Shown here: positions 2,036 to 61,820 of the stretch, one piece after another
Layout: each line of letters starts with the position of its first letter
Position numbering within the stretch: the first letter of the stretch is position 1
Assembly (NCBI GenBank): GCA_963712735.1
Contig: CAVQIZ010000005.1
Span: forward strand, 490,535-554,534
From: an uncultured Chloroflexia bacterium
GTDB lineage: Bacteria; Chloroflexota; Limnocylindria; Limnocylindrales; CSP1-4
Reading direction: 5' to 3'
Length of the DNA: 64,000 nt
Notes under the pieces: generated by a model
The model's input: the letters and a program-made list of their open reading frames with translations, nothing else
What the model was told of the DNA's origin: nothing
The model's database searches: none
Made by a program: the position numbers and the translations under genes

Positions 2036-4504
2036 ATGACGAAGAACCTGGTGATCGTGGAGTCGCCGGCCAAGGCACGCACGATCGAACGCTATCTCGG
2101 GGACGGCTACAAGGTGCTGGCCTCGTATGGTCATGTGCGCGACCTGCCAGAGAACCCCGGCAAGGGCAAGCTGGGCGTCGACGTGGAGCACGACTTTGCG
2201 CCCGAGTATGTGGTCAGCGAAGACCGCCGCAAGCAGTTGAATGCCATCACCAAGGCTGCCGCGACATCTGACCTGGTCTATCTCGCGACCGACCTCGACC
2301 GCGAGGGCGAAGCCATCGCCTGGCACGTGGTGGAAGCCGTAGACATCCCAGAAGACAAGCGCCGCCGGGTCACCTTCAGTGAGATCACCAAGAGCGCGAT
2401 CACGGCTGCCTTCGCCGAGCCACGCGACATCGACATGGGTCTCGTCGACGCCCAGCAGACGCGCCGCATCATGGACCGCATCGTCGGCTACACCCTGAGC
2501 CCGCTGATCAGCCGCAAGGTGCGCAGCGGCCTCTCCGCCGGCCGCGTTCAGTCGGTGGCGGTCCGGCTGGTGGTCGAGCGCGAACGCGAGATCGAGGCGT
2601 TCAGCGCGCGCGAGTACTGGACCCTGGACGCGCTGCTGGAGACGCCGGCAGGGGAACGCTACCGCGCCGCCCTGGTGAAGGTCGACGGCACGCGCCTCGC
2701 CACCGGCGGCGAGGTCAAGAAGAACGAGGTCCCCATCGCGGACCAGGCCACGGCGCAGGCGTACGTCGAGGCGCTGCGAGGCCAGACAGCCACCGTCACC
2801 TCGGTCAAGGTGCGCAGCAGCAAGCGCAACCCGGCTCCGCCTTTCACCACCAGCACGATGCAGCAGGAAGCCAGCCGCAAGCTCGGCTACGGGCCCAGGC
2901 GCACGATGTCGGTGGCACAGCGGCTCTACGAGGGCATCGAGATCGACGGCGAGCCCACCGGCCTCATCACCTACATGCGGACCGATTCGGTCAACCTGGC
3001 CACGTCCGCCCAGCACGAGGCGCAGGACGTCATCCGCTCGCGATACGGCAACGAGTACGCCGTCGAGGGCGGCCGCGGATACAAGACCAAGGTCAAGGGT
3101 GCGCAGGAGGCGCACGAGGCCATCCGTCCGACAAGCTTCATGCGCCATCCCGACTCGCTGCAAGGCCGCATCAAGGACGACGAGTTGCGCCTGTATCGAC
3201 TCATCTGGCAGCGTGCCCTGGCGTCGCAGATGGCCCAGAAGCAGATGGAGACGACCGCCGCCGAGCTCAGCGCGGGCCGCTTCGAGTTGCGCGCCAGCGC
3301 CACGCGCACGACCTTCGACGGCTTCACGCGGGTCTATACCGAGGGCCGCGACGACGGCGCCGAGGAAGAGGCGGAGAGCCGGCTTCCGGCACTGTCCGAG
3401 GGCGACCGTTCAGCCGTCGCCGACGTGGAGGGCGAGCAGCATTTCACCGAGCCGCCGCCGCGCTACACGGAGGCTACGCTCATCAAGGCGCTCGAGGAGA
3501 ACGGCATCGGGCGGCCTTCCACGTACGCCGCCACCATCTCCACCATCCAGGACCGTGGCTACGTCACCGTCAAGGAACGGCGCCTGCGGCCAGAGGCGGT
3601 CGCCCGCGTCGTGACCGACGTGCTGGTCGAGCACTTCGGCGACTACGTCGACTACGACTTCACCGCACGCATGGAGGCCGAGCTCGACGAGGTCGCCGCC
3701 GGCCGGCGTGGCTGGGTGCCGCTGCTGCACGAGTTCTACGACCCGCTCATCGCGCTGGTCGATGAGAAGCGCAAGACGCTCACGCGCAAGGAGTTGACCA
3801 CCGAGGAGACCGACGAGGTCTGCTCGGAGGGTCACCCCATGGTCATCCGGCTCGGCCGCAACGGCCGCTTCCTGGCCTGCTCCATGTACCCCGACCACAA
3901 GGAGACACGCGACATCCCCGGCGAGGAGCCGGACATGCCCGCGGTGGAAGGTGCCGGCGAGGCCTGCCCCAAGTGCGGCCAGGGCACGCTGGTGGCCAAG
4001 CGAGGACGCTTTGGCGCCTTCGCGGGCTGCGACCGCTATCCCGACTGTGACTACATCCATCGCACCGGGCCGCCACCGCCACCACCCTTGCCCTTCGAGG
4101 TGCAGTGCCCCACCTGCGGCGAAGGCCACCTCACCGCACGGCGTGCCCGCCGGACCGGCAACGTCTTCTACGGCTGTGACCGCTATCCCAAGTGCGACTT
4201 CACCACCAACTTCGAACCCCTCGGGGCCGTGCACGACAGCGACGCCGGAGCCGTCGGCCTCAAGGACGAGAGCGGCATCTGCCTTCGCTGTGGCGCCGCC
4301 ATCGACCTGCCCGCGGATCGCGCCGCGCTCGTGGGCATGTCCCTCGCCGGGGGCGAGCCGGACCCGGCGGCGCTGGCGCCATCGCGCAAGCGTCGAGCCG
4401 CCGGTGGCGGGCGCAAGGCGGGCACCAGAGCCAAGGCTGGCACACGCAAGCGCACGACGACCCGGGCGGGCGCCGACGCCGGAAGCGACGATCCCGGCAG
4501 CTGA
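2036..4504 (+). CDS. topA: DNA topoisomerase I (type IA) with C-terminal Zn ribbons and a Lys/Arg-rich tail
   Basis: MTKNLVIVESPAKA Toprim start, ATDLDREGEAIAWH, SAGRVQS, catalytic GLITYMRTDS, CPKCG-type Zn ribbons. Confidence 0.98.
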   Translation: MTKNLVIVESPAKARTIERYLGDGYKVLASYGHVRDLPENPGKGKLGVDVEHDFAPEYVVSEDRRKQLNAITKAAATSDLVYLATDLDREGEAIAWHVVEAVDIPEDKRRRVTFSEITKSAITAAFAEPRDIDMGLVDAQQTRRIMDRIVGYTLSPLISRKVRSGLSAGRVQSVAVRLVVEREREIEAFSAREYWTLDALLETPAGERYRAALVKVDGTRLATGGEVKKNEVPIADQATAQAYVEALRGQTATVTSVKVRSSKRNPAPPFTTSTMQQEASRKLGYGPRRTMSVAQRLYEGIEIDGEPTGLITYMRTDSVNLATSAQHEAQDVIRSRYGNEYAVEGGRGYKTKVKGAQEAHEAIRPTSFMRHPDSLQGRIKDDELRLYRLIWQRALASQMAQKQMETTAAELSAGRFELRASATRTTFDGFTRVYTEGRDDGAEEEAESRLPALSEGDRSAVADVEGEQHFTEPPPRYTEATLIKALEENGIGRPSTYAATISTIQDRGYVTVKERRLRPEAVARVVTDVLVEHFGDYVDYDFTARMEAELDEVAAGRRGWVPLLHEFYDPLIALVDEKRKTLTRKELTTEETDEVCSEGHPMVIRLGRNGRFLACSMYPDHKETRDIPGEEPDMPAVEGAGEACPKCGQGTLVAKRGRFGAFAGCDRYPDCDYIHRTGPPPPPPLPFEVQCPTCGEGHLTARRARRTGNVFYGCDRYPKCDFTTNFEPLGAVHDSDAGAVGLKDESGICLRCGAAIDLPADRAALVGMSLAGGEPDPAALAPSRKRRAAGGGRKAGTRAKAGTRKRTTTRAGADAGSDDPGS

Positions 4505-56647: not shown

Positions 56648-56724
56648 CGGGGCGTGGCGCAGCCTGGTAGCGCACTTGACTGGGGGTCAAGAGGTCGCTG
56701 GTTCAAATCCAGTCGCCCCGACCA
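56648..56724 (+). tRNA. tRNA-Pro (anticodon GGG)
   Basis: Acceptor stem CGGGGCG/CGCCCCG, D-arm GCGC, anticodon stem CTTGA/TCAAG with loop CTGGGGG, GTTCAAATC T-loop, encoded CCA. Confidence 0.98.
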
Positions 56725-59153: not shown

Positions 59154-59505
59154 CGCTCGCCATGATGGTATCGGGGTGAGAGCGTGAGACGACAGAAGTC
59201 CGCATCCGCTCCCGATGGCGCCATGACGGCGGAAGCACCTGTCCCACGGCTGCGACATCTGCGCAGGCACCTACTGCTGTGGGCAGCCTTGGCATCGCCG
59301 TGGTCTCGCCGATGTGACTCGCCATGTCCACGCGCCCGACACTCGGCATCGTCCTCGGCTTGAGATCGGCCGGTCTCGCGGTCACGCTGCCCGAGCGCTG
59401 GGCCACCTTCCCGTCGGTCTTGGTGAGGACCCGGAGACGCCGGCGCTCGCCGCTGCCGGGTCGTGGCCCGGAACGGGTGGACCGAAGTGGGAGAATCGCC
59501 GTGAT

Positions 59506-59580
59506 CGCGGGAGGCGATGAGGCACGGCCCGCACCTTGGCCGCCTGAGCCGCGCCGAGCCACTGGCGAACCCGACTCGCG
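59506..59580 (+). ncRNA. c-di-GMP-II-like riboswitch, copy A (variant)
   Basis: P1 CGCGGG/CUCGCG; P2 GGC/GCC; kink-turn GAU-GA...GAG; P3 GGCACGGC/GCCGCGCC; pseudoknot CGCC/GGCG; 3' AACCCGA; TGg-GAGAAT -10 upstream and GAGGGGGG SD downstream. Confidence 0.8.
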
Positions 59581-59593
59581 TATGAGAGGGGGG

Positions 59594-59653
59594 ATGTCTC
59601 TGCACCTCTCGGGCGGGCCCTTCGAAGGCGTCGACCTAGTGCACGAGGACTGA
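59594..59653 (+). CDS. 19-aa small ORF (MSLHLSGGPFEGVDLVHED) or truncated gene downstream of riboswitch copy A
   Basis: Strong SD GAGGGGGG immediately upstream; no similarity recognised. Confidence 0.35.
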   Translation: MSLHLSGGPFEGVDLVHED

Positions 59654-59792
59654 AGGGAGACGTTCCGGGGCAAGCCGTGGACATGGCCAGCTAGCCCCGC
59701 GAGGCGTGCGCCGCAAGAAGCGGGCCGCAACTCCCCTCGAGGGTGGACCGCGGTGCTGAAGGGCTTGGCGTCGAGCGAGCGACAGAGGTGCA

Positions 59793-59866
59793 CGCGGGCG
59801 GCGACGAGGCACGGACATAGCCTTGCCGCCGGGACCGTGCTGAGCCGCTGGCGCACTCGGCCCGAG
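59793..59866 (+). ncRNA. c-di-GMP-II-like riboswitch, copy B (more divergent variant)
   Basis: P1 CGGG/CCCG; C-GGC/GCC; kink-turn GAC-GA...GAG; P3 GGCACGG/CCGUGCU; pseudoknot CGCC/GGCG; 3' CACUCGG; GAAGGGA SD then ATG 59882. Confidence 0.72.
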
Positions 59867-59881
59867 CAGAAGGGATCTGTC

Positions 59882-60613
59882 ATGCACACACTGCAGCGTT
59901 TGCTGGCGGGAGCCGTCGTCATGTCGTTGCTTGGACTGACCGGCGTCGGCGGCGCCAGCGCGGAGGACGAGGACTGGTACAGGTACGACCCGGAGTGGCC
60001 GGTGTGGCACCAGAAGGTGCGGCAGCTCGAGGCAGGGATCGCCGACAATGAGGTGGCGCAGGCGGTCACACGGGTAAGACTCGCCAGCCTCTCCGATACC
60101 TATCGCGGGGCCATCTACCGCCTCTTCAGCCCAGTAGGCTGGGCCACGAGCCTTCAGGCTGCCGAGAACCGGCTGCGCATCCTCCAGATCAAGCGCGAGT
60201 CCCTGGTAGACGAATGGGACCGCGCTCGCAACGAGGTGGTGCGTATCGAGACCGACCCGGAGCGCGAGAGGTTGGCCCAGCTGCGAATGGCAACCCGTCT
60301 GTCAGTCGGCACCGCCTACCCAGAAGACTACGGGGTCGACCCGAGCCAGTTCGTCTTCGGGCCCAACATCGGCTACAGGGTGTCGTGTGCGGCCATGAGC
60401 CGGGACGAGGGCAGAGAGGACCTGGAGATCGGCAGGAAGCCCATCGGCGCAGCTAGCCGCGAGGAGATCGCCGAAGTCATCGCAGGTCCGCTGGAGGGCT
60501 GCGTACCCAACGAGAAGTTCAACGCGAAGCTGATCATCGAGGCGATGACCGTCGATCGCCGAGAGGTCATCGCAACGTACGAGGGCACGCTGCGCACGTA
60601 TCCAGGGAGATGA
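59882..60613 (+). CDS. Secreted hypothetical protein with a coiled-coil region
   Basis: Signal peptide MHTLQRLLAGAVVMSLLGLTGVGGASA|ED; heptad-like helices (LQAAENRLRILQIKRESLVDEWDRARNEV). Confidence 0.75.
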   Translation: MHTLQRLLAGAVVMSLLGLTGVGGASAEDEDWYRYDPEWPVWHQKVRQLEAGIADNEVAQAVTRVRLASLSDTYRGAIYRLFSPVGWATSLQAAENRLRILQIKRESLVDEWDRARNEVVRIETDPERERLAQLRMATRLSVGTAYPEDYGVDPSQFVFGPNIGYRVSCAAMSRDEGREDLEIGRKPIGAASREEIAEVIAGPLEGCVPNEKFNAKLIIEAMTVDRREVIATYEGTLRTYPGR

Positions 60614-60789
60614 TCGACGGGCCCAGGCCCACCACCGGTCTGCTCCACGCGATCCCTCGTGGGGCGGGCCGCGGGAGCTCGCGCCATGCGCACGGTCTAT
60701 CAGCAGACGCACCATGGCCAACCTGGTCGGCTCAGCCGCGGCCGCGTCGGGACGGAACCGGTCGGGTCAGTCGCTCACTCATACCAGTA

Positions 60790-60862
60790 GCGGGAGGCTG
60801 CGAGGCACGGCCCGTCGATTATGGCCGCCAACCGTGCTGAGCCACCGGCGAACCCGACCCGC
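60790..60862 (+). ncRNA. c-di-GMP-II-like riboswitch, copy C (variant)
   Basis: P1 GCGGG/CCCGC; A-GGC/GCC; kink-turn UGC-GA...GAG; P3 GGCACGG/CCGUGCU; pseudoknot CGCC/GGCG; 3' AACCCGA; GGGGGGA SD then ATG 60884. Confidence 0.82.
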
Positions 60863-60883
60863 GCACATCTTGGGGGGACTCTC

Positions 60884-61417
60884 ATGCGTACCCAGCGACT
60901 GTGGTCGGTGGCGACGGTCACCCTGGTGCTCCTGGCCGGGCTCACCGCGGCCGCCGTGGCCCAGGAGGCAGACGAGCACGCGCTCGTCACGCACGTGACG
61001 GGGACCATCATCGGCACGTCCTACGACGACTCGATGGCGAACGTGACGTACGCGCCCGGCGACGGTCACCACGTGGAGGGCGCCCAGTACACCGAGACCA
61101 ACGTCTGGGGCGACCCACGTCTTCCCGCCGACAAGAGGATGATCCTCAACTTCACCACCTATCCGGATGGCGACGGTCAATTCATGGTCACTCACACAAG
61201 CATCCGCCTCGACGGACCGGATGGTGCGTGGGCGGGCACCGGGGTCGGCCTGGCGTACCCGGACGGCACCAGCGAGGGCCAGGACGTGCTCGTCGGCGAA
61301 GGAGCCTACGAGGGCCTCACCGCCGTGCTCTACTGCGGAACGGACATGGGCTGCAGCGGGTCCATCTTCGAGGGCCAGATGCCCGACCAGCCGGGGCCTG
61401 TACCGCCGGTCGAGTGA
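60884..61417 (+). CDS. Secreted beta-rich hypothetical protein
   Basis: Signal peptide MRTQRLWSVATVTLVLLAGLTAAAVA|QE; Gly/Thr-rich strands, LVGEGAYEGL motif. Confidence 0.78.
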   Translation: MRTQRLWSVATVTLVLLAGLTAAAVAQEADEHALVTHVTGTIIGTSYDDSMANVTYAPGDGHHVEGAQYTETNVWGDPRLPADKRMILNFTTYPDGDGQFMVTHTSIRLDGPDGAWAGTGVGLAYPDGTSEGQDVLVGEGAYEGLTAVLYCGTDMGCSGSIFEGQMPDQPGPVPPVE

Positions 61418-61462
61418 CGAGCGGACACCTGCCGGCGGAGCCGCGATGGCGTGGCCCCCCGT

Positions 61463-61663
61463 CTATGCCGCCGGACGGCTCCGGTCGTGCTGTGCCGGGC
61501 CCGCGTGGAACGCGGGGTGGCCGTCACGCGCGGCGCAGCCCTGGCTCCAGCGGTGGGTTCCGGCGCACAGGTAGCACCACGCCGTCGCCTGTGCCGGCCA
61601 GCCCGCCTTGCGCTCCTTCTGCCCGATCTCTCGTCCGTACTTGCCCGATGCGTGCTTCGTCAT
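61463..61663 (-). CDS. Possible 66-aa small protein with Cys/His motif (WCYLCAGTHRWSQGC)
   Basis: GAGGG SD 6 nt upstream of the ATG; CxxC-x3-H-x5-C pattern. Confidence 0.4.
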   Translation of the reverse strand: MTKHASGKYGREIGQKERKAGWPAQATAWCYLCAGTHRWSQGCAARDGHPAFHAGPAQHDRSRPAA

Positions 61664-61820
61664 GGCCGTCCCTCAATCGCTGCGATACCGATCCGATCGC
61701 TATCGAGATCGATGGTCCGACGGGCGGCTCCCCGCGTCATGGTCACAGCACGGCAGACTCGGACGCCCATCGATTGCCGCGATCACGCAAGGCCTGGCGG
61801 CGAGCGCCAGTGACCCAGCC

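Follow-up and report, generated by a model that had tools for sequence, protein, structure and literature searches.

Variant c-di-GMP-II-GCG aptamers as candidate translational leaders of small secreted proteins in an uncultured soil Limnocylindria genome

The window, as we call the whole 64-kb stretch of DNA analysed here, comes from a metagenome-assembled genome of Limnocylindria (Chloroflexota), an uncultured soil lineage, which comprises 3.9 Mb in 8 contigs at ~85% completeness. It carries three homologous elements of ~85 nucleotides (nt) on the + strand, copy A (59501-59585), copy B (59788-59871) and copy C (60784-60868), and behind each of them stand a purine-rich Shine-Dalgarno (SD) sequence and a start codon (ATG 59594 for A, 59882 for B and 60884 for C). 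A first-pass annotation made from the letters had described three riboswitch-like elements at 59506-60862; they are present as it wrote them, and the stems P1, P2 and P3, a kink-turn and a CGCC/GGCG pseudoknot can all be seen. Judged by covariance models and predicted fold, A, B and C are cis-acting aptamers of the cyclic di-GMP (c-di-GMP) clan c-di-GMP-II (CL00127) and of its variant family c-di-GMP-II-GCG (RF03170).

The whole window was scanned against Rfam at curated thresholds and the interval 59300-61100 was rescanned more permissively, both with Infernal; because the Rfam clan filter hides lower-scoring relatives, each model of clan CL00127 was also searched singly over the genome. The gathering scores were 47.9 bits for RF03170, 53.5 for RF01786 (the canonical family), 40 for RF03169 (the GAG variant) and 35 for RF01051. 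At curated thresholds the window yielded one transfer RNA (tRNA; 56648-56721) and copy A, the latter as RF03170. Full-length + strand matches to RF03170 were found for all three elements, at 63.4 bits for A (E = 8e-11), 44.9 for B (E = 2e-6) and 43.3 for C (E = 5.5e-6), so that by Rfam's standard copy A is a family member and B and C are clear homologues a few bits short. The genome search with RF03170 gave 22 matches above the cut-off and 4 just under it, 26 copies in all. RF01786 scored A at 44.6 and C at 26.5 and did not list B, and its cut-off was reached by none of the 26 genome copies, the best of which attained 47.8. RF03169, which shares clan and scaffold, returned 54.1 for A (above its threshold of 40), 38.6 for C and 30.8 for B, each below the copy's own RF03170 score; the sole genome copy to score better with RF03169 than with RF03170 was rs14, which has an A at position 70. 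A covariance model made from the genome's own 26 copies, R1, scored A at 91.7, B at 67.7 and C at 86.5 bits and gave at most 14 bits in the rest of the window. The earlier label of class II c-di-GMP riboswitches therefore stands for the architecture and the clan and falls for the family, where RF01786 failed and RF03170 fitted best: by these scores the elements belong to an already catalogued RNA family, not to a new class and not to canonical c-di-GMP-II.

Covariation argues for the predicted stems. In the alignment of the genome's own 26 copies, pairing holds in 91.7% of cells, with compensatory changes at six pairs of P3. When 185,579 species genomes were screened by pattern and then searched with R1, 98 further copies were confirmed, and across these homologues, whose alignment was fitted to the covariance model and leans towards the structure, 92.9% of cells pair and 12 of the 20 pairs show compensatory changes (116 cells), in P1, in P2 and in all of P3. 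This covariation is strong; none of 500 shuffles was as high, and slid-partner controls paired at 28-48%. In the elements P1 reads GCGGG/CCCGC and P2 GGC/GCC. The signature of a kink-turn is also recognizable, as a variable 3-nt bulge (GAU, GAC, UGC and others) together with GA opposite GA; over the 26 copies G19, A20 and the GA across from them vary hardly or not at all. In BLASTN comparisons among the 26 cassettes the similarity ran mostly from P1 to P1 (about +4 to +80) and sometimes into a signal peptide; because it is confined in this way, the aptamer appears to be the conserved unit, and the same aptamer fronts at least 8 unrelated gene families.

Pocket positions are numbered after 3Q3Z (Clostridium acetobutylicum), in a register set by gap-free alignment of the 3' half. 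In that RNA, A14-U60 is the pair on which the ligand backbone stacks, with A61 as the ceiling and A13 at the floor; A69 and G73 each read one of the two guanines, and A70 intercalates between both bases (PMC13715770). The gap-free alignment had been proposed in the first-pass annotation against a reference string for the C. acetobutylicum RNA, and since this string places U60, A61, A69, A70 and G73 on the letters stated in PMC13715770, the register is supported. The 3' half of the elements reads GAG-CC-A-CU-GGCG-A-A-C-CC-G-A in the form used for the alignment. Copies A and C retain the canonical A13, A61, A69 and G73 and differ from the canonical pocket only in the change of A70 to C and of A14-U60 to G-C; C at position 70 and the G-C pair at 14-60 are common to all three copies. 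Their likeness to RF01786 and 3Q3Z thus extends over the fold, the four pocket letters, the kink-turn and the pseudoknot for A and C, whereas B has C13 and G61, and the difference lies in C70, in G14-C60 and in scores under the gathering threshold. With RF03170 the copies share the P1-P2-kink-turn-P3-pseudoknot layout, C70, G73 and the cis-regulatory position before genes, but the consensus of that family reads GGCGA-G-CCCG (G69) with the loop CGGUCGCC, whereas A, B and C read GGCGA-A-CCCG (A69) with the loop UGGCCGCC. A69 occurs in 25 of the 26 genome copies, the only G69 copy being that at contig C2:459047. Of the 98 homologues, 73 carry A69 and 25 G69, 91 carry C70 and 5 A70, and 96 have G73; in about 80 of them A14-U60 has given way to G-C. 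The invariant consensus letters suggest that 'GCG' names positions 69, 70 and 73, and if it does, the copies described here are an 'ACG' sub-form.

Copy A has an aptamer core at 59507-59579 (+), with P1 at 59507-59511/59575-59579, P2 at 59513-59515/59558-59560, a kink-turn of GAUGA (59516-59520) opposite GA (59556-59557), P3 at 59521-59528/59548-59555 and a pseudoknot between CGCC (59541-59544) and GGCG (59564-59567). Its pocket letters are A13 (59512), G14 (59513), C60 (59560), A61 (59561), A69 (59569), C70 (59570), G73 (59573) and A74 (59574). The SD sequence GAGGGGGG at about 59586-59593 leads into an open reading frame (ORF) on the + strand that runs from the ATG at 59594 to a stop at 59653 and encodes 19 codons, MSLHLSGGPFEGVDLVHED. 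A ribosome-binding site had been noted behind each element; copy A has its SD sequence and start codon, and directly behind it there is no full-length gene, only the 19-codon ORF. Copy A and this ORF are probably either the remains of a cassette or the front half of a tandem leader formed with B. The 202-nt spacer between A and B showed no similarity to other cassettes and genes, which leaves a lost gene unproven, and in an upstream alignment made by eye a promoter-like module was present upstream of A and absent upstream of B. Copy A is an intact aptamer that may be orphaned or may act in tandem with B, and the present data are compatible with both. Upstream, the tRNA gene at 56648-56721 (64.4 bits) lies ~2.8 kb before the three cassettes, and the stretch in between holds many overlapping ORFs and no obvious genes.

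Copy B (59788-59871, +) is the divergent member of the three. Its P1, which the first-pass annotation had written longer, is really four base pairs (CGGG/CCCG) plus a mismatch, and its pocket departs further from the canonical one through A13 to C, A61 to G, A68 to C and C71 to U, with G at position 74. Gene B (59882..60613, +; its start corrected from 59883) follows an SD sequence AAGGGA (59870-59875) and encodes a protein of 243 amino acids (aa) with a signal peptide, for which no Pfam family was found. It is an ORFan: a search of 5.8 billion proteins yielded a single homologue. Its single-sequence AlphaFold model is poor (predicted local distance difference test score, pLDDT, 48) and unusable. 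The homologue lies in L174 (ENA ERZ25039603 contig_52922, 3857-4000), a locus syntenic with the window end, where a Zn-ribbon protein and a pyridoxal phosphate (PLP)-dependent decarboxylase are shared; there the aptamer has been reduced to a degenerate, unrecognisable trace, GAGCCAGCCGGCC..CTCGAGCCCGCGG, and two intact riboswitch-gene cassettes stand near the gene B homologue. Copy B is degenerate, apparently decaying and of doubtful function, and the L174 homologue, which keeps only a trace of its aptamer beside intact cassettes, fits such a decay. The gene order in L174 differs as well, which points to rapid cassette turnover.

Copy C (60784-60868, +) has the pocket of A, namely A13, G14-C60, A61, A69, C70, G73 and A74, and compared with A its P3 and loop are 2 nt shorter and its joining segment reads ACC, not ACU; it would be a typical working unit. 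Gene C (60884..61417, +), behind the SD sequence GGGGGGA (60872-60878), encodes a secreted protein of 177 aa, one of a family of ~180-aa paralogues that share the motifs W.DPRLP, GPDGAW.G, GEGAYEGL and I(F/Y)EG..P, and BLASTP clustering assigns 11 of the 26 riboswitch-preceded genes of this genome to this family. All 42 metagenomic homologues of gene C are hypothetical proteins and none has a Pfam family. AlphaFold predicts an all-beta barrel of 9-10 strands behind the signal peptide (pLDDT 88), and the nearest folds in the PDB are DUF3224 (2q03/2ooj) and small Diels-Alderase-type barrels, with template modelling (TM) scores of about 0.45-0.58; no neighbour in this fold search had E < 1e-3.

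The elements had been taken for a small regulon, a view that does not survive a count, since beside the 26 copies of this genome there are 1-31 copies in each of 23 of the 24 other genomes of the genus. In a sample of the class the RNA family was present in 105 of 301 genomes, spread over 30 of the 57 genera; in a sister family with 1.1-Mb genomes there was no copy. Limnocylindria supplies nearly all of the 98 copies confirmed by R1; weaker ones come from Acidimicrobiia (Ilumatobacteraceae, Microthrixaceae). Matches to the pattern in Streptomyces, Bradyrhizobium, Myxococcota and others were rejected as chance, none having been confirmed by the covariance model. Two scaffolds can be told apart, a multi-copy one, GGGAGGC...GAGCCACUGGCG, which includes A, B and C, and a single-copy one, GGGAAGC...GAGCAGUGGCGAGCCCG (G69), which occurs once per genome across the genus (in this genome at C2:459047-459132, +). 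The single-copy scaffold (loci L038-L052 and L059) always precedes a DUF5658-like membrane protein of ~97 aa (AHIADY..RHGL.AELNP). The corresponding gene of this genome has an apparent frameshift after about 65 codons.

The distance from the end of the element to a start codon that has an SD sequence is 8-36 nt in all 26 copies (8-15 nt for A, B and C). Downstream genes of this genome outside the gene C family are unrelated and comprise gene B and genes for an SRPBCC protein, an S-adenosylmethionine (SAM) methyltransferase, a Kelch-like repeat protein and several other signal-peptide proteins. The 51 complete downstream proteins from all genomes include 6 SRPBCC, 2 methyltransferases, 2 SnoaL-like proteins and 1 DUF5658, and about 39 of them have no Pfam family. 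As predicted from these sequences, the proteins that most leaders would gate are small and secreted, bearing signal peptides. Cassettes also stand in arrays of two or three with an aptamer of its own for each gene, as for B and C, at C3:293446/294253/297132, C3:428676/431216, C7:425967/430774/431523 and C5:569297/575287. A near-identical signal peptide, MRTLRLSLVGTVI..LLGGLG.A..AQ, recurs in riboswitch-controlled proteins whose mature folds are unrelated, and the same proteins have in common an extreme C-terminal tail, ...P.P(D/E)P.EP(P/S/A)AE-COOH, behind which no transmembrane segment follows; signal peptide and tail were seen in gene C, in the C3, C5 and C7 copies rs01, rs04, rs08, rs11 and rs17 and in the homologues P0002-P0042. 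The tail looks like a shared tag.

Upstream of the aptamers, alignment by eye brought out promoter-like modules. The one before A (59478..59497, +) reads GGACC-N7-GAGAATC, with a -10-like GAGAAT at 59491-59496, and also precedes eight other genome copies; the one before C (60754..60782, +) consists of GGAACC, about 18 nt and ACTCAT, resembles the extracytoplasmic function (ECF) type and is common to six other copies. Three module types were distinguished, CCTCTTGNA-N17-TANNNT, GGACG-N6-GAGAATC and the ECF-like GGAAC(C)-N16-18-ACTCAT, each of them ending 5-8 nt before P1, which suggests different transcriptional inputs into one shared riboswitch gate. A transcript started from such a module would begin a few nt before P1 and carry the aptamer at the very 5' end of the mRNA. 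A scan of 59200-61700 for sigma-70 consensus promoters and intrinsic terminators found nothing, and from the end of P1 to the AUG there is a median of 21 nt (range 11-56). Because this leaves neither room nor a signal for a terminator, control of translation initiation is the natural reading, and the layout makes translational control plausible.

The composition of the leaders offers a conceivable route for such control. P1 comprises 5 G-C pairs; its 3' strand and the CCC that precedes it are rich in C, the SD sequence in G. Many copies also have, right behind P1, a GCGCAUG flank complementary to the usual start context UCAUGCGU. Once the ligand is bound, the pseudoknot and the short P1, made up wholly of G-C pairs, would be locked; neither the GCGCA flank nor the C-rich 3' strand would then be available to pair with the G-rich SD sequence and the AUGCG start region, and with SD and start freed, translation would switch ON. 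Thermodynamic folding of the genome's own 26 leaders alone gave a mixed picture of ON versus OFF, and the larger set, for which we used the 77 of 98 homologues with a start codon and SD sequence right after the aptamer, leans ON; as an inference from folding, the direction leans likewise. Taken whole, the explanation that we favour and consider reasonably probable is that the elements are variant RF03170 translational leaders with a dinucleotide ligand and act as an ON switch.

Some of the evidence for this explanation is qualified by points that weigh against it in whole or in part. When the aptamer fold was forced on the 77 leaders, predicted SD accessibility rose from 0.46 to 0.55 (p = 4e-5) and AUG accessibility from 0.48 to 0.62 (p = 9e-4), which speaks for the ON direction. 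In part this gain follows from the calculation itself, which by imposing the fold takes away the C-rich pairing partners, and in 7-12 of the 77 the effect was reversed. The duplex between flank and start had -6.1 kcal/mol compared with -4.9 +/- 0.2 kcal/mol for shuffled flanks, and cross-paired leaders reached -6.0 kcal/mol, so the complementarity is family-wide and not leader-specific. A co-adaptation of P1 flank and start within each leader was rejected on the same grounds, native and cross-paired values being equal, and a covariation-type proof of an AUG-sequestering helix falls with it. The CGCC/GGCG pseudoknot is 95-97% paired yet invariant and gains no support from covariation; it is consistent with the alignment but unproven. 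Copies B and C lie under the curated RF03170 cut-off of 47.9. On the side of the messenger, GGDEF domains occur in all 105 riboswitch-positive genomes of the class, and the one family without GGDEF is also without the riboswitch, but this co-occurrence discriminates weakly because 288 of the 301 class genomes have GGDEF, and in another family (f3) GGDEF is present and the riboswitch absent. The genome holds about 13 GGDEF matches and one DAC (c-di-AMP synthase), and beside the 26 variants a single canonical c-di-GMP-I riboswitch (RF01051; C3:174630-174710, -, 54.9 bits); given this riboswitch and the DAC, other ligands or redundancy may come into play. The paper that defined the variants reportedly raised the sensing of a different signalling molecule. 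In the searchable full-text literature the GCG and GAG variants appeared only in listings, and no ligand was reported for either.

Because A70 has become C and A14-U60 has become G-C, c-di-GMP cannot be taken as the established ligand. The ligand would be a guanine-containing dinucleotide second messenger, for which c-di-GMP is the leading candidate at somewhat under an even chance; a different cyclic or linear dinucleotide is a serious contender of smaller probability, and something else takes what is left.

Of the explanations that compete with variant dinucleotide-responsive leaders, we weighed foremost that these are ordinary class II c-di-GMP riboswitches with canonical binding, whose divergence comes only from high G+C. 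It draws on the shared fold, on A13, A61, A69 and G73, which A and C retain, on the abundance of GGDEF and on the secreted or surface-type targets, which are reminiscent of c-di-GMP riboswitch regulons already described. A70 is found in a few paralogues built on the same scaffold (rs14, L094:5381 and L126:362), and the SRPBCC gene family is preceded by A69/C70, G69/C70 and A70 versions of the aptamer in different genomes, a hint that these letters need not change the ligand. This explanation is nonetheless unlikely, for the canonical RF01786 threshold is missed throughout the genome (0 of 26 copies, best 47.8 vs 53.5) and the intercalating A70 and the A14-U60 pair have been replaced in 91 and in about 80 of the 98 homologues, respectively.

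A ligand other than c-di-GMP, whether an isomer of cyclic GMP-AMP (cGAMP), c-di-AMP, a linear dinucleotide or an unrelated metabolite, would make the C70 and G14-C60 pocket the mark of a changed specificity. In its favour, C70 and G14-C60 are fixed across the class, the genome already has a canonical c-di-GMP-I riboswitch, and many of the controlled proteins have small-ligand-binding folds (beta-barrel, SRPBCC, SnoaL). Precedent comes from the engineered RNA c-di-GMP-II-Bh, in which replacing A-U by G-C at the first pair of P2 altered the preference among cGAMP isomers, the dissociation constant (Kd) going from 460 to 139 nM for 2',3'-cGAMP and from 11 to 33 nM for 3',3'-cGAMP (PMC13715770). 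That construct (BhP1-5delC) resembles the present RNAs in that small changes in the pocket region, including this one, retune the choice of dinucleotide; it differs in being a laboratory construct that retains the intercalating adenine, and it is no evidence for cGAMP binding by the natural RNAs described here. Since, moreover, a cGAS/DncV-like nucleotidyltransferase (CD-NTase) of SMODS type was not found in the genome, and none of 77 inspected downstream genes encodes metabolite-indicating biosynthesis or transport, we regard this explanation as decidedly unlikely. Very improbable, finally, is a non-sensor, that is, a repeated promoter and leader cassette, or else a structured leader that is constitutive or bound by a protein, duplicated together with paralogous genes: promoter-like modules and even the signal-peptide sequence are common to many copies, and the copies are highly identical (77% per column), but most cassette similarity ends at the aptamer borders, P1 and P3 are maintained by compensatory changes across genera, the unpaired pocket nucleotides are the most conserved positions, and unrelated genes in two phyla are preceded by this one aptamer.

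The dinucleotide-responsive leaders that we favour have a parallel in the clostridial c-di-GMP regulons of surface and secreted proteins, where many aptamer copies likewise precede genes for exported proteins and are sometimes clustered or in tandem, as with the tandem c-di-GMP-II aptamers before a surface anchor protein (PMC9481103). The present set differs in lying in Chloroflexota, in a layout that is translational and not terminator-based, in its variant pocket and in targets without a known family.

A bolder extension, which we put forward tentatively and think rather unlikely, is that the pocket of A69, C70 and G73 with G14-C60 forms a natural sensor of a dinucleotide other than c-di-GMP, such as a cGAMP isomer or a linear one, and that this sensor switches on a lineage-specific secretome in soil Limnocylindria. 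If this were true, the secretome would consist of dozens of small ligand-binding proteins of beta-barrel, SRPBCC and SnoaL type that share a signal peptide and an ...EPPAE tail, and a new messenger-to-secretome circuit would be at work in an uncultured phylum-level lineage. The useful part of the finding is its setting, with 26 copies in one genome and hundreds in an uncultured soil class before a coherent set of exported proteins; the size of the regulon and the short translational leaders offer ligand hunters many natural variants and a simple reporter design. Should the ligand be c-di-GMP, these RNAs would be the main RNA-level output of c-di-GMP in Limnocylindria, and should it not be, they would be a sensor of a new messenger.

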